From: Bacteroidales bacterium
GTDB lineage: Bacteria > Bacteroidota > Bacteroidia > Bacteroidales > JAAYJT01
Length of the DNA stretch: 64,000 nucleotides
NCBI GenBank assembly: GCA_049654165.1
Contig: JBASHR010000091.1
Span: 9,524 to 73,523 of the forward strand
Reading direction: 5' to 3'
Part shown: positions 3,700 to 29,446 of the stretch, piece by piece
How positions within the stretch are numbered: the first letter of the stretch is position 1
Layout of the letters: each line of letters begins with the position of its first letter
Made by a program: the position numbers and the translations under genes
Notes under the pieces: generated by a model
Database searches by the model: none
Told to the model about the DNA's origin: nothing
Seen by the model: the letters and a program-made list of their open reading frames with translations, nothing else

Positions 3700-4581
3700 A
3701 TGATGGAACCTTATTTCGAGTCCGAAGATAAAAATTTCTACCTCTTACATGGAGATACAATGGAACTTTTGCCCCGGTTTGAGCATAAGTTTGATATGGT
3801 TTTTGCTGATCCACCTTATTTTTTATCTAATGATGGCCTTTCAATACAAAGCGGGCAGATTGTAAGCGTAAACAAAGGGAAATGGGATAAGTCAGAAGGA
3901 TTTGCATTTATTAATAATTTTAATCGACAGTGGCTTACATTGGTTCGCGATAAGATGAAAGAGAATGCTACAATATGGATAAGTGGCACTATGCACAATA
4001 TTTTTTCAGTAGGACAAATTTTAACAGAATTAGACTTTAAAATCCTCAATATCATTACCTGGGAAAAAACTAATCCTCCTCCAAATTTTTCATGCCGTTA
4101 TTTTACTTATTCAACCGAACAAATTATTTGGGCTAGAAAAAGTGAAAAAGTTCCTCATTATTTCAACTATGAGTTAATGAAACAACTAAACGGAAATAAA
4201 CAGATGAAAGATGTTTGGAGGCTGCCGGCAATTGCTCCCTGGGAAAAATCATGCGGAAAACACCCTACACAAAAACCATTATCGCTTTTAACTCGTTTAA
4301 TATTAGCTTCAACTAAGTCCAATGCCTGGATTTTGGACCCATTTACAGGTAGTTCAACAACTGGAATTGCTGCTAATTTAGCAAATAGACGGTTTTTGGG
4401 AATTGATAAAGAAGAGGAGTATTTGAATATAAGCAGAAATAGAAAGATGGAAATAGAAAGTCGAAAAGTAGCCGCTACATATAAACAAAAAATAAGTGGT
4501 TTTAACCATAAAAAGGAACTTGAACTTTTTTTATTTGAGGAGCGAGAAGTTGAATATGGAACAGAGCTGACCTTAAAATAA
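3700..4581 (+). CDS. Beta-class N6-adenine DNA methyltransferase (DpnA/M.MboIC-like second methylase)
   Basis: Motif IV 'FADPPYFLSNDG' lies near the N-terminus and motif I 'DPFTGSSTTG' near the C-terminus. 'NFSCRYFTYSTEQIIWARK' and 'GKHPTQKP' are as in DpnA. Confidence 0.85.
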   Translation: MMEPYFESEDKNFYLLHGDTMELLPRFEHKFDMVFADPPYFLSNDGLSIQSGQIVSVNKGKWDKSEGFAFINNFNRQWLTLVRDKMKENATIWISGTMHNIFSVGQILTELDFKILNIITWEKTNPPPNFSCRYFTYSTEQIIWARKSEKVPHYFNYELMKQLNGNKQMKDVWRLPAIAPWEKSCGKHPTQKPLSLLTRLILASTKSNAWILDPFTGSSTTGIAANLANRRFLGIDKEEEYLNISRNRKMEIESRKVAATYKQKISGFNHKKELELFLFEEREVEYGTELTLK

Positions 4582-10133: not shown

Positions 10134-10206
10134 TGATCCTGTTGGGATTCGAACCCAAGACCCCATCCTTAAAAGGGATGTGCTCTACCTGCTGAGCTAC
10201 AGAATC
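10134..10206 (-). tRNA. tRNA-Lys (anticodon UUU)
   Basis: The reverse complement folds by hand into a 73-nt cloverleaf: GATTCTG/TA/GCTC-AGCAGGTA-GAGC/A/CATCC-CTTTTAA-GGATG/GGGTC/TTGGG-TTCGAAT-CCCAA/CAGGATC/A. CCA is not encoded. Confidence 0.95.
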
Positions 10207-12790: not shown

Positions 12791-12827
12791 AGCTTTGTTG
12801 ATTAATTGTACTGAGAACTTAAAAAAA

Positions 12828-12924
12828 GGGTAAGCCAAAAATATCGCACCGCTACAACTGCCTACCCTTGCTTCCTTCCGGACCTGGGGGAGTTCAGCAG
12901 GAGCTGGTCGTATCCGACTTACCC
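12828..12924 (-). ncRNA. ffs: Signal recognition particle RNA (4.5S type)
   Basis: The minus strand reads GGGUAAGUCGG...CAGGUCCGGAAGGAAGCAAGG...UUGGCUUACCC followed by U7. The domain IV motif 'CAGGUCCGGAAGGAAGCA' is nearly identical to E. coli 4.5S. The 5' and 3' ends pair (GGGUAAGUC with GGCUUACCC), and the U-run follows at 12821-12827. Confidence 0.85.
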
Positions 12925-13014
12925 GCTGCAAAGATAGAAATTTTTGGATTATCTTGCGTTTTTAACCTGATATTTAACATTACTTTATAAATTTGCCAAT
13001 TATAAAAAATTACA

Positions 13015-20645: not shown

Positions 20646-22175
20646 TTAGTAAGGTAATTCCTGTTCTTCATCGGTTTCATCATCCATTTCATTCATTTTA
20701 CTCTGGTAGGTAACCACATTCTGACCATATGCCTGACCTGTTCCGGGTTCAAACTGAGGTGCAGTTTCAAGTTCGAGGAATTGAGCATTTTTATCAATAA
20801 ACTGGAATCTCAGATCACTTAACTTTCCGTTTCTATGCTTCGCAATGCTTACTTCAGCAATTCCTCTGGTGGAGTTACCCTGGTCGTCCACTGTAATTTT
20901 ATAATACTCAGGACGATATAGGAACAGCACCAGGTCGGCATCCTGTTCAATAGCCCCCGATTCACGAAGGTCGGACAGGATGGGTTTTTTTGAACCTCCG
21001 CGGGTTTCAACAGCACGGCTTAGCTGAGAAATAGCTATGATTGGAATATTCAATTCTTTGGCAAGGCTTTTTAGTGAACGTGAGATATTACTTATTTCCT
21101 GCTCACGGTTTCCTTTTATCTCACCACCACCCGACATTAACTGAAGGTAGTCAATCATTGCAAGCTGTATGTCGTGTTGAGCTTTAAGCCGGCGACATTT
21201 AGCCCTTAATTCAAAAATAGTAAGCGCCGGACTGTCGTCAATAAGTAGGGGGGCATCTTCAAGGTTCTTGATTTTTGCATTTAGCTGGTGCCACTCATGA
21301 TTTTCGAGATTACCCTTTTTAAGTTTTTCGGCAGCTAGCCCGGTTTCTGCTGAAATAAGGCGGGTAACAAGCTGGATTGCAGACATTTCAAGAGAAAATA
21401 CAGCAATAGGCTTATTATAAACAACTGAAATATTAAGAGCCATTGAAAGCATAAATGCTGTTTTACCCATACCTGGTCTGGCTGCAATAATGATAAGGTC
21501 AGAAGGCTGCCAGCCGTTGGTTACGCGGTCTAACGATGAAAATCCCGACGGAACCCCGCTAAGCCCACCTTCTGTATTTTTTGCTTTTTCAATGTTTTCT
21601 ACAGCTTCCCTGATAAGATCAGGCATATTATAAACGCTGCGCCTGATATTGGTTTCGCTTAACGAAAACAAATTCCTTTCAGCCTTGTCGAGCAAATCAA
21701 AAACATCAACAGTATCTTCAAAAGAGTCATGAATTATTTCGGATGAAGTACGAATCAATTCACGCTGTATATATTTCTGCATTAAGATACGTGCGTGGTA
21801 TTCAATATTGGCTGCCGATGATATCCGGTTTGTAAGTTGGGTGATGTAAAATGGACCGCCTACAATGTCAAGCTTGCCATTGGTTTTGAGTTTGTTTGTA
21901 ACTGTAAGGATATCAACCGGTTGGGTTTCCTGAAATAATTGCAGTATTGCTTCATAAATATACTGATGTATCTCTTTATAGAAAGTTTCCGGTTTTAATA
22001 TATCAATCACTGCTGTGAGAGCATCTTTCTCAAGCATGATAGCGCCAAGTACGGCTTCTTCAAGATCCAGCGCCTGTGGCGGCAGTTTTCCATGTTCGCT
22101 TATATCGCTGACAGCAACCCGTTTAGCGGTTCTTCTGGTAGTTTTTTCAGCGATAGGTGTTTTAGTTTCTTCCAT
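20646..22175 (-). CDS. dnaB: Replicative DNA helicase DnaB
   Basis: 'PPQALDLEEAVLGAIML' N-terminal domain, Walker A 'ARPGMGKTAF', and 'SLEMS', 'IDYLQLM' and 'ISQLSRAVE' blocks. Confidence 0.95.
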   Translation of the reverse strand: MEETKTPIAEKTTRRTAKRVAVSDISEHGKLPPQALDLEEAVLGAIMLEKDALTAVIDILKPETFYKEIHQYIYEAILQLFQETQPVDILTVTNKLKTNGKLDIVGGPFYITQLTNRISSAANIEYHARILMQKYIQRELIRTSSEIIHDSFEDTVDVFDLLDKAERNLFSLSETNIRRSVYNMPDLIREAVENIEKAKNTEGGLSGVPSGFSSLDRVTNGWQPSDLIIIAARPGMGKTAFMLSMALNISVVYNKPIAVFSLEMSAIQLVTRLISAETGLAAEKLKKGNLENHEWHQLNAKIKNLEDAPLLIDDSPALTIFELRAKCRRLKAQHDIQLAMIDYLQLMSGGGEIKGNREQEISNISRSLKSLAKELNIPIIAISQLSRAVETRGGSKKPILSDLRESGAIEQDADLVLFLYRPEYYKITVDDQGNSTRGIAEVSIAKHRNGKLSDLRFQFIDKNAQFLELETAPQFEPGTGQAYGQNVVTYQSKMNEMDDETDEEQELPY

Positions 22176-22364
22176 GACCCAAAAATAAGTAATTACATTA
22201 TATCCCTGCAGAATTAACTACAAAAAAGTTTTTAACACCGGATAAGACACGCCACAAGCCTAAAAAGAGTCATAAACCTTTATTCCTACAAAATAAAAGC
22301 TATCTCTTGCTGAACTATTAAATGCTGATCTATCCTATTAATTCTGCAGATTTTGAACCCCGAA

Positions 22365-22778
22365 GGGGTGCAATTATTATAACCCCAATGTTTTCACTCC
22401 ACCATAGAGAACCCCGAAGGGGTGACATAATATTATCCGGCACTTCGCGAGCCTCAGGGTCCATGATAACAGCCTCGTAGAGATGTAATAATCAGGCGCT
22501 TCGGGAGCTTCAGCACCCGGAAAATTAGCCTTACCTGCCTTTATCAAATTCGTTAAGGCTTGCAACTCTTAGGAAGGGCATTTTGTAATAAATCGCTCTA
22601 ATCCTGCCATCTGGAACCCCGAAGGGGTGTTATGATTATAACGTGTGGTGCTCTAAATAACATGCAAACCCCGAAGGGGTGGTATAATATTATCCGACAC
22701 TTCGAGAACCTCAGTGTCTGTGCTAATAACCTTGTAGGGATGTGATAATCCGGGCGCTTCGATAGCCTAAGCACCCGT
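22365..22778. repeat. Hairpin-rich composite tandem repeat, array 1 (about 1.65 units, 249-257 bp period)
   Basis: 'accccgaaggggtg' occurs at 22367, 22411, 22616 and 22668. Stem-loops of the form GRCRC-N13-GYGYC have the conserved loop 'ttcgRgagcctca'. The unit order is A-B-D-A-B. Confidence 0.9.
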
Positions 22779-22835
22779 GATATGAGGAGATTTTTTGATA
22801 GAGATTTCTCCCATAATTTTTATAATCATCATCAA

Positions 22836-23993
22836 TTAATCCAGATTTTTCAGATTTCTGAAATTTACCAGATTCACATCACGAACAACCTGTTCAAAAT
22901 CACCGTCATATATTAGTAACGGGTTCACTGCCCTGTCAGGAAATGTTTTCTTGAAATACGTAAATTGTTTTAAAAAATCCGGATGAAACGTTGCAGATGA
23001 CTTTACTTCAACAGGTTGCAATTGATGTCCAAGGCGACGAACTATGTCCACTTCGCTGTGGTTACTGTCACGATAAAAGAACAGATTGCTGTCAAGTCCT
23101 TTATTAAAACGCATTTTCATAAATTCAACCACCACCATATTCTCAAAAATTGCTCCCCTTAGCGGGTCACGGTTTAGTTGATTTGTGTTTTCAATTCCCA
23201 AAAGATAAGATAGTAAGCCCACATCATAAAAGTAAATTTTAGGTGATTTTATAAATCTTTTACTGACATTATCGGAAAAAGGCTGCAACATAAAAATGAT
23301 ATAGGATGCTTCAAGGATGTTTATCCATGCCTTCACTGTTGCAACTGTGATGCCGGTTTCACCTGCAATAGCTGAAAGATTGACCAGATTTCCGGCACGG
23401 CCGGCACATATCCGTACAAAACGCTGGAACTGGCTAAGATCTTTGACTTTGATAAGACTATGCAGGTCGCGTTCAATGTAAGTTTCGTAATAATTGCGGT
23501 ATGCCTTGTAAGGAGTGAGGTTATGCGCATAAACTCCGGGATAATATCCGCGGAGCATAATACTGTCCGTTGTGCTATTAGCACTATCACCAATTTCAGA
23601 AATTGAAAATGGCAACAATTTAATAATTGCTGTTCTTCCTGCCAGGGATTGAGTAACACTATCCAGCAAAGAAAACTGATTGCTTCCAGTGAGAATAAAT
23701 TTTACGCTATCTCTGTACTCATCAATTACCTCCTGTAGATACGAAAGTAACTGAGGCAGATGCTGTATTTCATCAAGAATTGCACCTTTTTGATTCTGTT
23801 TCAAAAACGAGCGCGGGTCTGATTCCACCATAGCTCTGGTATCTGGACTTTCAAAGCTATAATACGGCAGATGTCCGAACAAATGTTTTACAAGCGTTGT
23901 CTTACCAGATTGTCTAGGTCCGGTAATAGTGAGTACAGGGTATTGTGCTGCCATTTCCAGTACTTCTGCTTCTATTTCTCTTCTTAAATACAT
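22836..23993 (-). CDS. AAA_14/DUF4143-type ATPase (COG1373-like), function unknown
   Basis: Walker A 'GPRQSGKTT', Walker B-like 'AILDEIQ', and a C-terminal 'EVDIV...VEVK' region as in DUF4143 proteins. Confidence 0.8.
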   Translation of the reverse strand: MYLRREIEAEVLEMAAQYPVLTITGPRQSGKTTLVKHLFGHLPYYSFESPDTRAMVESDPRSFLKQNQKGAILDEIQHLPQLLSYLQEVIDEYRDSVKFILTGSNQFSLLDSVTQSLAGRTAIIKLLPFSISEIGDSANSTTDSIMLRGYYPGVYAHNLTPYKAYRNYYETYIERDLHSLIKVKDLSQFQRFVRICAGRAGNLVNLSAIAGETGITVATVKAWINILEASYIIFMLQPFSDNVSKRFIKSPKIYFYDVGLLSYLLGIENTNQLNRDPLRGAIFENMVVVEFMKMRFNKGLDSNLFFYRDSNHSEVDIVRRLGHQLQPVEVKSSATFHPDFLKQFTYFKKTFPDRAVNPLLIYDGDFEQVVRDVNLVNFRNLKNLD

Positions 23994-24019
23994 TTTTATG
24001 TATATTTATAGTTGAACTG

Positions 24020-24027
24020 CAAATATA
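24020..24027 (-). promoter_or_regulatory. Candidate -7 box (TATATTTG) for the ATPase gene
   Basis: Plus strand 'caaatata' is TAnnTTTG on the minus strand, 27 nt upstream of the ATG at 23993. Confidence 0.3.
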
Positions 24028-24086
24028 CATAATATTAATAAATGATGTATCAGTTTGTTTTTTTATTAAAGGCTTATAATAAGAAT

Positions 24087-24657
24087 AAAGCCCCAAAGGT
24101 GGTATTATATTATTTCACGATTCAATAACCTCAGCACCCGAAAAATCAACCTTATATGCCTTTATCAAATTCGTAAAGATTTGCAACCCACGTGATAACA
24201 TTTTGTAATAAACCGCCTTAACTCTGCCATTTAGAACCCCGAAGGGGTGTTATGATTATAACACCTGTGATGCTCTAAACCACTTTTAAAGCCCGAAGGG
24301 GTGACATAATATTATCCGACGCTTCGAGAGCCTCAGTGTCCATGATAACAATCTTGTAGGGATGCAATAATCAGTCGCTTCGGGAGCCTCAGCGCCCGGA
24401 AAGTCAGTACTATATGTCTTTAACAATCCCTAAGGTCTGCAACCCCACGTGAAGGCATTTTGTAATAAACCGCCTTAACTCTGTCATCTAAAACCCCGAA
24501 GGGGTGTTATGATTATAACACCTGTGATGCTCTAAACAACATGTAAACCCCGAAGGGGTGACATAATATTATCCGACACTTCGAGAGCCTCAGTGTCTGT
24601 ACTAACTGCTCCGTAGGGATGCAATAATCTGGCGCCTCGGGAGCCTCAGCGCCCAGG
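24087..24657. repeat. Hairpin-rich composite tandem repeat, array 2 (about 2.6 units, 257 bp period)
   Basis: 'accccgaaggggtg' occurs at 24236, 24493 and 24547, with the variant 'agcccgaaggggtg' at 24290 and a degenerate copy at 24087. The unit order is B'-D-A-B-D-A-B, in the same orientation as array 1. Confidence 0.9.
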
Positions 24658-24683
24658 GGTTATAATATGATAGAAACAGCGAC

Positions 24684-26242: not shown

Positions 26243-29200
26243 TTATTTCATCGAAACTATTTTCTTGATAAACAGTTCATTACCAATGCTGATTCTGCAG
26301 AAATAAATTCCGGGCAACATGTCTTCTGACTCAACGGGCAGTTGATAATCGCCGGCTTGTTCATAAGTGTCTTTCAATGATAGTATTATTTTACCCTGAG
26401 AATTGAACAATGCAATATTAACCTGTGAATCTACCGGTAATGAATAGGATATCATTGTTGAACCTGAGAAGGGATTAGGATAAACAGCAGGTTCGTAAAT
26501 TTTGGTCATTAAATTTTCATTATACTGATATTTCATCATCGGCACTTCTATTGCATTAACATTGGCAGCAACTACTTCACCCCAGGCGAGGTCATTGAGT
26601 CTGGTTTTGAATTTCATGATGGTTGTTCTTTCAGCAGGCAGGGGCGAATTATCGAAGCTGAAAATAATACAGCGCAGGCTGTTGCCAATTTCAGCACATC
26701 TGAATTCATAGCCTCTCATAGCTATTTCTACATCCTTCATTGTTAATCCCTGAATATCAAATTGCAATCCGGCTAGTGTGCCATCATTTGCAAGTTCAAT
26801 TCCATCATTATTCAGATAAATATACCCTATTTCTGAATTCACTATTTGCGAGCCATTTTTACCTCCACTCATAATTATATTAACTGTGCCAACAATATCC
26901 AGCACGTTGATGACATTATCTCCGTTAATGTCAGCATTTTCAAAACAGAACGGAGTAGGATTCTGAAGCAGAACGTAATTGGTAGTTGTAACAACATCGA
27001 GTACATTCACAACTCCGTCGCAGTTGGAATCACCCGGCAACGGCAGGCTCATACTTCCAATGAAAATATTGTCAATAAACACATTGTCACCCTCACTACT
27101 GATCTTATCATGTATGCGGCAGCTTGATTGAAGTGTTATTGTGAAAGCCGTGCCTTTAAATTCAGAAAGATTGAATATCTTTTTGGAAAACGGATCAGTA
27201 TTTGAGGTTGGATTAAAATCCATAACACCATCAATATCAGCAACCTGAATAGTATCATTTATAAGAACTCTGAACCATGAGAATTTGGGTCCCAGACTAT
27301 ATGTCTGACGCAAATCAAAAGCCAGATATACCTCGGGCATATTAGTAGCGTCAACATTACATATTTCAGCAAAACCATGAAAATCAACGTTTGAATTCCA
27401 TGCCTGCTGTGGTGTTGTTCCTGTAGGTGTACCTGACCAGCCTGTGAATAATCCAGCACCGGTGAAATGCAATCCGAATTCACTTTCTTTTGCCGAACGC
27501 CTGTCAACTTTTACATATGCCTTTGAGTTTGAGGAAAGAATGAAATTATCTGATTCTCCGCTTTCAAAATCATCTTCAAGAGGGAGGTTTCTTCCGTCAA
27601 TGGTAAAATGATCATCAAAAACCTTGGTGGTACTGCCATTGGCGTTAACTACGGTAACCTGGACGCTGTAAACACCGGGAGCAGTGAAAATAATTTCGGG
27701 ATGCTGACTAGCAGAGTTGGTTCCGTTAATGAACATATATGTTGAAGGTGTAAAACTCCATTGCCAGCTGGTAGGATTATAAAGAGTATTATCTTCAATT
27801 GTAATTGGGTCATAAATACAACCAGTTGTTAGGCTGGCTTCAAACTGCGGATACGGAGCAGGGTTGTTTGTTACCACAATGAAGCCTTGTTTGGTAAGGG
27901 TTTCATTTCCGTATGCATTTTGAACTGTCAGGGTCACATCGTATGTGCCGGAAGCGGAATAGGTAATACCTGTGGGATCTTTAACAGTTGAAGTAGCAGG
28001 CATACCTCCATTGAATGTCCAGTTCCAGGAATTGGGAATTCCTTTTGTGAGATCGGTGAAATTAATTGACTGACCGGGTTGAATAATAGTAACGGGAGTA
28101 CTGAAAGCAGGTTGTGGTGAAAAAGGAACAGCTTTAACAGCTTCGTAGGCATCAATTCTTCCGGCACCCAACTGTCCTGCCCATTGTGGATTCAAAGCGT
28201 CAATATTAACGCAAGTAGCTTCCATAACGCTTTTAAGATCAGCATTTGTGAGGTTGGGATTAATTGATTTCATCAATCCGGCAAGTCCTGCTGCCACAGG
28301 TGTAGCCATTGAAGTACCAAAATATGAATCGTAGTAACCCATTGACGTGTTTTCAAACACAGTGCTTAAAAGTCCCATAGGACCGGGTGAAGCATAACCT
28401 CCCGGAGCACATACTGAAACGTAGGTACCCCAGTTCGAAAAGTCAGTTTTTACGTCATTATCATTAGTTGATGCAACAGCAATAACGTGATTATATCCTG
28501 CAGGATATCTTATTGCATTGTCAGACTCGTTTCCTGCAGAAGCTAAAAACGAAATTCCCATTGCTGCTCCCGTATTAATCATATTCTGATATGTCTGGCT
28601 GTATCCTGAACCTCCAAATGACATGCTTATAACATCGGCGCCATTGTTAATTGCCCAGTTAACACCCTGCTGAGAGTGAGTAATTGTTACTGCCTGACTG
28701 GAAGCTCTTACGCCAATTATACTTGTATTATAGCCAATTGCAGCAATTCCGAGATGATTATTCGTTTCGCCTGCAGCAAGTCCGGCACAGTGAGTTCCAT
28801 GCGACCAGTCGCCAGGATCACCGGTATTTGGAGGATTTGAATCAGGGGTGTTATTTACCACGTTACGCTGCAAAACAACTTTATTGGTGAGATCGGGATG
28901 GTGTGACCATACAGCATTATCAACAATGGCAATTTTAATTTCAGGATCGCCCTTTGTAATTTCCCATGCCTGTTCAGCATTGATAACATCGAGATGCCAT
29001 TTCCATTTATATGGCCCATTGACCAGATTGTAAAGGCTGTCGTTAGGCTTGAAATCAAGATAATAGCAAGGTACTTTTTCTGCATAATCTATTTCAGGTT
29101 TGGATTCAAGTTCTGAAATTATTTTATCGAGTGCTTTATGATCGGCGAAAGTTAAAAGGAAGGTTCTTAATAATTTGATATCATTATTAGCATCAAGAGG

Positions 29201-29446
29201 ACGGCTAATGCTGATAAGTTCATGTTTGCTAAAAATATCGGCAAAATAACCGGCATCTTCCTTTTTCACTGTATAATCAGGTGCTACGGAAATTTGCGGA
29301 TCATAGTCATCATGGAATTTAACAAAGATTTGTCCGTCAACAAAATCTTTTTCGAAGGTTTGTGCGTTAGCGACATAACCTGTCAGCATAGAAGCAAAGA
29401 ACAAAATAGTCATTACCTTGCTGATCAATTTGTTAGCATTTTTCAT
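26243..29446 (-). CDS. Secreted S8 (subtilisin-like) serine peptidase with PKD domains, dockerin-like module, cohesin-like domain and T9SS C-terminal domain
   Basis: Catalytic triad contexts 'IAIVDNAV', 'HGTHCAG' and 'GTSMATP'. Two PKD-like repeats ('FTDLTKGIPNSWNWTFNGG...'). 'GDSNCDGVVNVLDV...DINGDNVINVLDI'. C-terminal domain 'VYPNPFSGSTMISY'. Confidence 0.9.
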   Translation of the reverse strand: MKNANKLISKVMTILFFASMLTGYVANAQTFEKDFVDGQIFVKFHDDYDPQISVAPDYTVKKEDAGYFADIFSKHELISISRPLDANNDIKLLRTFLLTFADHKALDKIISELESKPEIDYAEKVPCYYLDFKPNDSLYNLVNGPYKWKWHLDVINAEQAWEITKGDPEIKIAIVDNAVWSHHPDLTNKVVLQRNVVNNTPDSNPPNTGDPGDWSHGTHCAGLAAGETNNHLGIAAIGYNTSIIGVRASSQAVTITHSQQGVNWAINNGADVISMSFGGSGYSQTYQNMINTGAAMGISFLASAGNESDNAIRYPAGYNHVIAVASTNDNDVKTDFSNWGTYVSVCAPGGYASPGPMGLLSTVFENTSMGYYDSYFGTSMATPVAAGLAGLMKSINPNLTNADLKSVMEATCVNIDALNPQWAGQLGAGRIDAYEAVKAVPFSPQPAFSTPVTIIQPGQSINFTDLTKGIPNSWNWTFNGGMPATSTVKDPTGITYSASGTYDVTLTVQNAYGNETLTKQGFIVVTNNPAPYPQFEASLTTGCIYDPITIEDNTLYNPTSWQWSFTPSTYMFINGTNSASQHPEIIFTAPGVYSVQVTVVNANGSTTKVFDDHFTIDGRNLPLEDDFESGESDNFILSSNSKAYVKVDRRSAKESEFGLHFTGAGLFTGWSGTPTGTTPQQAWNSNVDFHGFAEICNVDATNMPEVYLAFDLRQTYSLGPKFSWFRVLINDTIQVADIDGVMDFNPTSNTDPFSKKIFNLSEFKGTAFTITLQSSCRIHDKISSEGDNVFIDNIFIGSMSLPLPGDSNCDGVVNVLDVVTTTNYVLLQNPTPFCFENADINGDNVINVLDIVGTVNIIMSGGKNGSQIVNSEIGYIYLNNDGIELANDGTLAGLQFDIQGLTMKDVEIAMRGYEFRCAEIGNSLRCIIFSFDNSPLPAERTTIMKFKTRLNDLAWGEVVAANVNAIEVPMMKYQYNENLMTKIYEPAVYPNPFSGSTMISYSLPVDSQVNIALFNSQGKIILSLKDTYEQAGDYQLPVESEDMLPGIYFCRISIGNELFIKKIVSMK

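Follow-up and report, generated by a model that had tools for sequence, protein, structure and literature searches.

A BIME-like cluster of REP-type hairpin doublets, probably built from a mobile DNA element, on both sides of an ATPase gene in a Bacteroidales genome

The stretch of DNA analysed here, called the window throughout, comprises 64,000 nucleotides of a Bacteroidales contig (JBASHR010000091.1), and the best relatives of its DnaB protein carry Bacteroidales names. Two arrays of a hairpin-rich composite repeat lie on either side of a gene for an ATPase with AAA_14 and DUF4143 domains, among genes which are all on the minus strand. The full unit of the repeat is composed, in this order, of two hairpin-bearing parts, A and B (the 'aaccccgaaggggtg' blocks), of two stem-loops, SL1 and SL2, and of a tail, D. 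Parts A and B belong to a family of short hairpins of the repetitive extragenic palindrome (REP) type, which in other genomes is associated with a Y1 transposase gene. The array is probably a cluster similar to the bacterial interspersed mosaic elements (BIMEs), built from a REP-type mobile hairpin element and variable between strains, and not a new structured RNA. The features of the locus are listed below; SL1, SL2 and D carry no strand, and the nhmmer values refer to a profile built from the doublets of other genomes.

20646-22175, minus strand: DnaB gene (neighbour gene)
22356-22437, plus strand: REP doublet 1 (A1 at 22356, B1 at 22410), with exact core motifs, nhmmer E 1.6e-17
22439-22461: SL1 hairpin copy 1, with a degenerate stem (alignment and pair counts)
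22495-22517: SL2 hairpin copy 1 (alignment and pair counts)
22518-22614: D tail copy 1 (unit alignment, repeat search)
22615-22696, plus strand: REP doublet 2 (A2, B2), nhmmer E 8.9e-17
22696-22718: SL1 hairpin copy 2, with a perfect GACAC/GTGTC stem (alignment and pair counts)
22753-22775: SL2 hairpin copy 2, end of the left array, ~60 nt short of the ATPase stop codon (alignment)
22836-23993, minus strand: gene of the ATPase with AAA_14 and DUF4143 domains (Pfam), between the two arrays
24074-24090, plus strand: left copy (TTATAATAAGAATAAAG) of an imperfect direct repeat bracketing the right array (empty site of a relative aligned with both junctions)
24087-24138, plus strand: degenerate B' REP fused to an SL2-like hairpin (alignment; weak nhmmer match at 24079-24111, E 0.46)
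24139-24234: D tail copy 0 (unit alignment)
24235-24316, plus strand: REP doublet 3 (A3, B3), nhmmer E 2.3e-16
24318-24340: SL1 hairpin copy 3 (alignment and pair counts)
24374-24396: SL2 hairpin copy 3 (alignment and pair counts)
24397-24491: D tail copy 3 (unit alignment)
24492-24574, plus strand: REP doublet 4 (A4, B4), nhmmer E 5.2e-18
24575-24597: SL1 hairpin copy 4 (alignment and pair counts)
24631-24653: SL2 hairpin copy 4, end of the right array, ~30 nt short of the DUF2779 stop codon (alignment)
24660-24677, plus strand: right copy (TTATAATATGATAGAAAC) of the imperfect direct repeat, present as a single copy (AGATAATAGAAAC) in the relative L125
24684-26147, minus strand: gene of a DUF2779 protein (neighbour gene)
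26243-29446, minus strand: subtilase gene (neighbour gene)

The repeat is real and far beyond chance. Tandem Repeats Finder reported a tract at 24182-24654 (period 257, 1.8 copies, 88% matches, score 774), and a repeat search followed by MAFFT alignment resolved five in-register pieces at 22289-22545, 22546-22800, 24068-24168, 24169-24425 and 24426-24680, the third of which is degenerate. The four full units and the degenerate one flank the ATPase gene on both sides with a period of 257-259 bp and share 81-88% identity from unit to unit, the stretches between the REPs included; as these inter-repeat stretches are themselves repeated, a CRISPR array was ruled out. The 12-mer CCCGAAGGGGTG occurs in eight exact copies in the 64-kb window, all on the plus strand and all within the two arrays, and shuffled sequence gave a mean of 0.07 matches even at the looser criterion of one mismatch or fewer. 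The left array reads A-B-SL1-SL2-D-A-B-SL1-SL2 and the right one B'-D-A-B-SL1-SL2-D-A-B-SL1-SL2; they are in direct, not inverted, orientation and out of register with each other across the ATPase gene.

From the end of the right array (24657) to the DUF2779 stop codon (24684) there are 27 nt, and from the last hairpin or the end of the left array (22779-22790) to the ATPase stop codon (22836) about 46-57 nt. An earlier reading, made from the sequence alone and called here the sequence-only reading, had described a composite, non-coding repeat of ~250-257 bp split around the ATPase gene and ending shortly past these two stop codons, and all of this was borne out by Tandem Repeats Finder, the alignment, the shuffles and the distances, with no reading frame common to the copies, because the period is not a multiple of 3. 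Its five units become four full A-B doublets and the degenerate B' fused to an SL2-like hairpin (24087-24138). Its first motif starts at 22356 and not at 22365. Of the four copies of part A, two have a perfect form of the 8-bp hairpin which it placed there, another has a near-perfect one, and the first has none.

Parts A and B are found well outside this genome. A scan of contigs from one genome per species with the pattern CCCGAAGGGGTG-N35-50-CCCGAAGGGGTG returned at least 118 loci, in which a 26-nt hairpin motif, AACCCCGAAGGGGTGAYATKATTATA, forms arrays; the family counts given below are among the matches listed. Most of these loci belong to Bacteroidota, and others to Ignavibacteria, Kapaibacteria, Kryptoniota, Calditrichota and Chloroflexota (five loci of one Brevefilum bin), as well as to Nitrospirota, Elusimicrobiota, one planctomycete and one Desulfonema bin. 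Two actinobacterial matches (L060 and L068) are without the extended motif clusters of the other loci and may be unrelated to the family. The 12-mer core is present in at least 445 exact copies, and a 15-mer with up to two mismatches in at least 646. Alignment of 436 instances extended the conserved block to AACCCCGAAGGGGTG-A-Y-A-T-K-A-T-T-A-T-A, the consensus reaching 26 nt. Neighbouring copies are on the same strand in 418 of 494 pairs, and 316 of these 418 are 45-59 nt apart, a spacing which the search pattern favoured. With crude calling of open reading frames (ORFs), 82 of the 87 classifiable clusters are intergenic. Several genomes combine dispersed copies with one Y1 locus, e.g. an Alkalitalea metagenome-assembled genome (MAG; L026, L044, L081, L082, L091) and the Ignavibacteria MAG-299 (L003, L062). 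At L130 2916-4220, a 434-aa 'gene' without a Pfam match covers 21 REP copies which recur every 57 nt (19 codons), and is almost certainly a spurious ORF made by the repeat array.

With an nhmmer profile built only from the doublets of other genomes, the four A-B blocks of the window were recovered (E 5e-18 to 2e-16), and the rest of the 64 kb gave no convincing match. The two members of a doublet are not alike, as 46 isolated doublets showed: the first has a long tail (...GGGGTG-a-AT-t-ATT-a-TAG), and the second reads ...GGGGTGAcAT-AT, where its conservation ends. The A (GGGGTGTTATGATTATAAC) and B (GGGGTGACATAATAT) parts of the window match the first and the second type; together they therefore make up a single ~80-nt element, with A as its left half and B as its right. 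The repeat had previously been taken for an unnamed element private to the genome, a view overturned by these doublet halves, which are found across phyla and flank a Y1 (IS200-like) transposase gene. A literature text search by motif string and keyword searches for REPs and REP-associated tyrosine transposases (RAYTs) in these taxa brought up no paper describing the repeat and nothing beyond the RAYT papers of 2010-2018, and no description of a link between the hairpin pair and an IS200-like transposase gene was found.

The REP hairpin is composed of a 5-bp stem (ACCCC/GGGGT) and a loop which is GAA on the plus strand and UUC on the minus strand, with AA on the 5' flank and TGAYAT on the 3' flank. 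It is maintained by compensatory change in the register of a 5-bp stem and a 3-nt loop. When one stem pair at a time was allowed to vary, pair 3-13 was found as C-G in 389 copies, T-A in 58 (in 32 loci), G-C in 5 and A-T in 2, with 19 one-sided or mispaired exceptions, including 12 T-G and 4 C-A; pair 6-10 was found as T-A in 11 copies and A-T in 2. ViennaRNA prefers the same stem and loop on both strands, as RNA and as DNA. The cUUCGg tetraloop of the sequence-only reading, on the minus strand, would require pairing in a register one position off and is contradicted by both covarying pairs and by the ViennaRNA folds. One-sided changes in the stem favour no strand, and the family consensus has no GTAG or CGTC tetranucleotide at the stem foot. 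GAA loops closed by a C-G pair form unusually stable DNA mini-hairpins, and such a structure would fit a single-stranded DNA substrate.

The association with a transposase gene emerged from the layout of the arrays. Several loci have a plus-strand array, then ~500 bp, then a minus-strand array, and the interval encodes a 153-aa ORF which matches Pfam Y1_Tnp and the NCBIfam IS200/IS605 transposase. By tblastn, a Y1_Tnp gene adjoins the repeats in 24 of the 118 loci listed. Upstream of it, 73 REPs are on the gene strand and 11 on the opposite one; downstream, the first two REPs are inverted in nearly every locus with downstream REPs. The repeats abut the coding sequence, e.g. with ...AACCCCGAAGGGGTGAAATAAAATG where it begins and ...GAATAATAATATCACCCCTTCGGGGTT at its stop codon. 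Because these Y1 loci were found through the motif, three homologues (P0023, P0044 and P0054) were chosen by protein similarity alone, as a control for motif-based sampling. All three have the motif at their flanks in the same inverted layout, and one of them is accompanied by an unbroken run of 21 REP copies with a period of 57 nt. Other candidates considered from the motif were set aside once the Y1 association appeared: integron attC sites, dif/Xer sites, fragments of tRNA or rRNA, and origins of the CRESS (circular Rep-encoding single-stranded DNA virus) type.

The Y1 proteins keep HuH, WQ and YIxNQEEHH motifs, in which Y-I-x-x-Q-x-x-H-H is invariant. The HuH and catalytic-tyrosine motifs align with those of IS608 TnpA (YIENQ), whose structure 2a6m is the nearest solved one. 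The signature Y---Q--HH is that of class 1, subclass 1.2 (PMC6006769), and the class 2 signature Y---NP was not encountered in these proteins. Many of them are labelled 'REP element-mobilizing transposase RayT' by JGI, and the NCBI label is 'IS200/IS605 family transposase'. Two copies in contig L017 are 67% and 69% identical to the protein of L117. At L017 264-5047, a type I restriction-modification methylase gene lies between two diverged Y1 genes, both of them accompanied by REP doublets. The methylase gene, with the motifs DPACGTGGFL and NPPF, is split into two ORFs (1101-1847 and 1908-2687), and an HsdS-like gene comes after it. The Y1 gene at L116 4033-4491 contains an in-frame stop codon and is likely a pseudogene, with REP doublets still on both sides.

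Close relatives differ in the presence of the arrays. In the L125 contig, where DnaB is 96% and the ATPase 92% identical to those of the window, only 99 bp separate the DUF2779 and ATPase genes, versus a spacer of 690 bp in the window. Positions 24068-24666 of the window replace 8 bp of L125, the right array is wholly absent there, and in the window it lies between two imperfect direct copies (~17 nt) of the empty-site sequence (24074-24090 and 24660-24677). The left region of L125 is arranged differently: it holds three REPs, a partial SL2 and a short D, whose order is not that of the window, plus an unrelated ~130-nt insert; this insert (L125 3400-3520), between the first REP and the SL2 remnant, has a short tandem repeat of the GGAGAATG type and a terminator-like hairpin (aaacgggctttagcccgttt). 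In relatives at 77-79% DnaB identity, DUF2779 adjoins DnaB, and both the ATPase gene and REPs are missing. The arrays are therefore young and variable. They also interrupt assembly: four independent short-read assemblies of the same organism (L119, L121, L122 and L123) end within ~100-270 bp of the ATPase and DUF2779 genes, inside the arrays, and the repeat thus breaks short-read assemblies.

Compared with L126 and L128 (77-79% DnaB identity), the ATPase gene too has been inserted, between DUF2779 and dnaB. Because L125 has this gene and not the right array, and no homologue of it was found in the 118 REP loci listed, it arrived separately; it was considered as the partner of the repeat and rejected as a bystander. 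Directly upstream of its start codon lies a near-perfect 18+18-nt palindrome (23996-24032, TTATGTATATTTATAGTT / AACTGCAAATATACATAA, 89% complementary), which is kept in L125 and resembles an operator site.

SL1 and SL2 are present in 8-9 copies, each with a 5-bp stem and a common 13-nt loop, TTCGRGAGCCTCA (as a search motif, TTCGRSAGSCTCA), in which an inner 3-bp helix (GRG/CTC) is possible. Over 8 copies, pairing is present in 82% of the pair cells, SL1 (GACAC/GTGTC) and SL2 (GGCGC/GCGCC) differ from each other on both sides of two stem pairs, and the covariation score was equalled in 3 of 500 shuffles. The difference represents in effect one or two events, i.e. one paralogue split among nine related sequences, and not broad covariation. 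The compensatory stems and the conserved loop of the sequence-only reading are thus confirmed, the change in the stems as one or two events only. Among the wobble cells, six G-T pair only on the plus strand and five A-C only on the minus strand; these counts name no strand, in keeping with the sequence-only reading. The last ~25 nt of the D tail resemble the unique DNA to the left of the first REP (22330-22355), reading TTAACTCTGCCATTTAG and TTAATTCTGCAGATTTTG, respectively, with AACCCC next in both. This likeness is what a tandem duplication of a doublet plus its flank would produce, and clusters of REPs with duplicated flanks have been described for other REP families (PMC3733652).

The spacing from B to SL1 (~29 nt) and from SL1 to SL2 (56 nt) is like that of '++--' quartets in other genomes. 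SL1 and SL2 were therefore considered as diverged inverted REPs; the spacing fits, but single-REP and doublet profiles are without a minus-strand match there, and the candidate was rejected. An exact match to the SL loop was not found in any of the 118 REP loci listed. A hairpin with a similar loop, CCC-TTCGACAGGCTCA-GGG, is found in tandem in the Chitinophaga contig L066 and singly in L015. The L066 copies (3940-4260) form a distinct tandem hairpin repeat with a ~45-nt unit, TGTCATGCTGCCCTTCGACAGGCTCAGGGTGACAGCC; the likeness of its loop to that of SL1 and SL2 is a thin hint at a second hairpin family. SL1, SL2 and D may be either co-amplified DNA or a second hairpin family.

The explanation we favour for the array starts from an element whose unit would be the ~80-nt doublet of two head-to-tail hairpins, A and B. 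By analogy with IS608 TnpA and with TnpA-REP of E. coli, an HUH/Y1 enzyme of subclass 1.2 would recognise the hairpin in single-stranded DNA, cut there and carry doublets into intergenic sites. In the window, one doublet together with about 175 bp of neighbouring DNA (SL1, SL2 and D) may have been amplified in tandem by slippage or recombination, giving the 257-bp period, and the intergenic region on the right would have received a copy of the block from the left one. If the two upstream genes are affected at all, by termination or mRNA stabilisation, this would be a secondary role.

Several known systems share parts of this organisation. Like the REPs and BIMEs of E. coli, the family is composed of short multi-copy extragenic hairpins in composite arrays which can take in flanking DNA, mostly at gene ends. 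Unlike the E. coli REPs, it is without the GTAG/CGTC tag and has a 5-bp stem and a GAA loop, and whereas BIMEs alternate in orientation with set linkers, it forms head-to-tail doublets and long direct arrays (all eight window copies are on the plus strand). As in the REPtron of TnpA-REP/RAYT genes, a low-copy Y1/HUH gene is flanked by inverted hairpins (24 loci among the matches listed and three motif-independent ones), but the associated protein is of class 1 (Y---Q--HH) and not of class 2 (Y---NP). The core is nearly identical across phyla, unlike that of the classical species-specific REPs. In the REPIN/RAYT system of Pseudomonas (Bertels and Rainey) a paired-REP unit is likewise apparently copied and a single-copy Y1 gene flanked by units; REPINs are, however, inverted REP pairs folding into one long hairpin, and the pair here is direct. 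The doublet also recalls IS200/IS605 insertion sequences (IS), since it has two different hairpin ends on one strand, as left and right IS ends with nothing between them. In contrast to IS200/IS605, the Y1 gene lies between two whole inverted doublets and not between the hairpins of one, and its copies are not near-identical, paralogues in one contig having diverged.

Subclass 1.2 was described by Quentin et al. in 2018 (PMC6006769) as low-copy proteins of ~148 aa with DH[IV]H, WQ and YIKNQKEHH motifs, found in Cyanobacteria and Bacteroidetes and listed as 'REP: no'. The REP search of that work required a GTAG/GTGG foot and a 7-20-bp stem, and would miss the present hairpin because it has a 5-bp stem without the required tag. 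The flanked protein resembles this subclass in its size (~150 aa), its D/N-H-[VI]-H, WQ and Y---Q--HH motifs, its few diverged copies per genome and its Bacteroidetes hosts. It differs from the subclass as listed there in that REP doublets tightly flank the genes and hosts extend to Ignavibacteria, Calditrichota and Chloroflexota.

A number of observations weigh against the mobile-doublet explanation. Two thirds of the unit (SL1, SL2 and D) are not detectably related to the REP by profile, and copies of these parts outside the lineage were not found in the REP loci listed, in two metagenome pattern scans or in plasmid and phage collections: the scan for B plus the start of SL1 gave no match, that for the D-A junction hit one unrelated contig only, beside an IS91-like gene, and blastn of the composite against the plasmid and phage collections gave none. 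A search covering the 64-kb window found no Y1 gene, so a resident mobilising enzyme in this genome is hypothetical, and the predicted activity of the Y1 subclass on REPs is read from conserved catalytic residues. To our knowledge, HUH/Y1 transposition leaves no target duplication; as the right array is bracketed by a direct repeat, its copying into that region seems more likely to have occurred by recombination or duplication than by clean HUH transposition. The collection pattern demanded two exact cores 47-62 nt apart, and both the doublet spacing and the invariance of the core are therefore partly a matter of ascertainment. Finally, some of the matches outside Bacteroidota could be contamination of metagenome bins.

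The most direct competitor holds that the unit is a cis-acting RNA in the 3' untranslated regions of the ATPase and DUF2779 genes, working as a minus-strand terminator or mRNA stabiliser. Its position suits this role, since both arrays start 27-57 nt past minus-strand stop codons and a U-rich sequence (CACCCCUUCGGGGUUUUAG) follows the REP hairpin on the minus strand, and among the whole-unit folding z-scores (-0.77 for plus-strand RNA, -2.18 for minus-strand RNA and -1.91 for plus-strand DNA) the minus-strand RNA has the best. With crude ORF calls, REP clusters lie between convergent genes in 23 of 87 cases versus 60 of 365 in the background, and between divergent genes in 12 of 87 versus 75 of 365; a strong gene-end bias was rejected on these figures, the convergent-gene excess being only modest. 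Yet terminator-like sites in the consensus scan are on the plus strand only, at the A hairpins, with none on the minus strand inside the arrays. The nearest REP has the orientation of the upstream gene in 40 cases and the opposite one in 58, the wobble pairs are strand-neutral, and in the relative with a 96% identical DnaB the right array is missing and the left one rearranged. Rfam 15 gave no match at the gathering threshold, and at E<=10 the best was a 23-nt hairpin fragment matching Acido-Lenti-1 (16.7 bits, versus a gathering value of 37). An RNA of this kind is improbable, and the element is concluded to be primarily DNA-level and mobile, with effects on transcripts possible. The sequence-only reading was right that the hairpin-rich repeat is REP/BIME-like in its gene-end position and that its pairing is maintained. 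Selection for an RNA structure finds no support in arrays absent or rebuilt in L125, in the 40 versus 58 orientations or in the modest folding z-scores. It had also named ends of an IS or of a miniature inverted-repeat transposable element (MITE) with target duplications as an outcome contrary to its view; Y1-flanking doublets and a target-like direct repeat at the right array agree with this outcome only in part.

Compatible with the doublet explanation is the idea that SL1 and SL2 are a second, independent REP-like family with a recognising protein of its own, the unit being a mosaic like the BIMEs of E. coli. The stem varies on both sides around a conserved loop, similar-loop hairpins are present in L066 and L015, and the spacing mirrors the '++--' quartets; however, there are only 8-9 copies at one locus, the L066 loop matches at 11 of 13 nt (matches with three mismatches in 1 Mb are near the chance estimate of ~50), no associated gene was identified, and the profile does not detect SL1 and SL2 as inverted REPs. 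We consider such a family possible, though rather unlikely. A mobile cassette which carries the DUF4143 ATPase gene and has the repeats as its ends is suggested by the arrays on both sides of the gene and by the absence of the gene in relatives at 77-79% DnaB identity. It becomes very hard to maintain given that the L125 ATPase gene is without an array on its upstream side, that the other 118 REP loci listed hold no ATPase homologue, and that the arrays are direct and out of register across the gene. Equally remote is a chromosomal function beside dnaB as arrays of binding sites (iterons, centromere-like sites or sites of nucleoid proteins): regular direct repeats do adjoin a replication gene, but arrays of the same motif occur elsewhere in unrelated gene contexts and are not kept in close relatives.

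The window also contains two ordinary features on the minus strand, a Bacteroidales small signal recognition particle RNA (94.8 bits) at 12824-12931 and a tRNA gene at 10134-10206.

At this locus, a candidate for a new structured RNA is replaced by an explanation in terms of mobile DNA, which would account for both the assembly breaks and the differences between strains. Arrays of this type also create spurious gene calls, such as the 434-aa 'protein' over the 57-nt-period array. On a broader scale, the doublet is a putative substrate for a subclass of Y1 transposases which had been described as an orphan, and it represents a REP family conserved in sequence across phyla, unlike the species-specific REPs studied so far. 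This raises the questions of how the REP association originated in class 1 (IS200-like) enzymes and of whether direct doublets move as a unit. We suggest tentatively, with doubt slightly outweighing conviction, that subclass-1.2 Y1/HUH genes are the core of an unrecognised REPtron-like system, whose substrate would be an asymmetric head-to-tail doublet, near-constant across phyla and able to form arrays of at least 20 copies, the window array being one local outgrowth of it. If this were true, the near-invariance across phyla would point to a tight constraint between enzyme and substrate, to frequent horizontal transfer, or to a function for the host beyond selfish spread.

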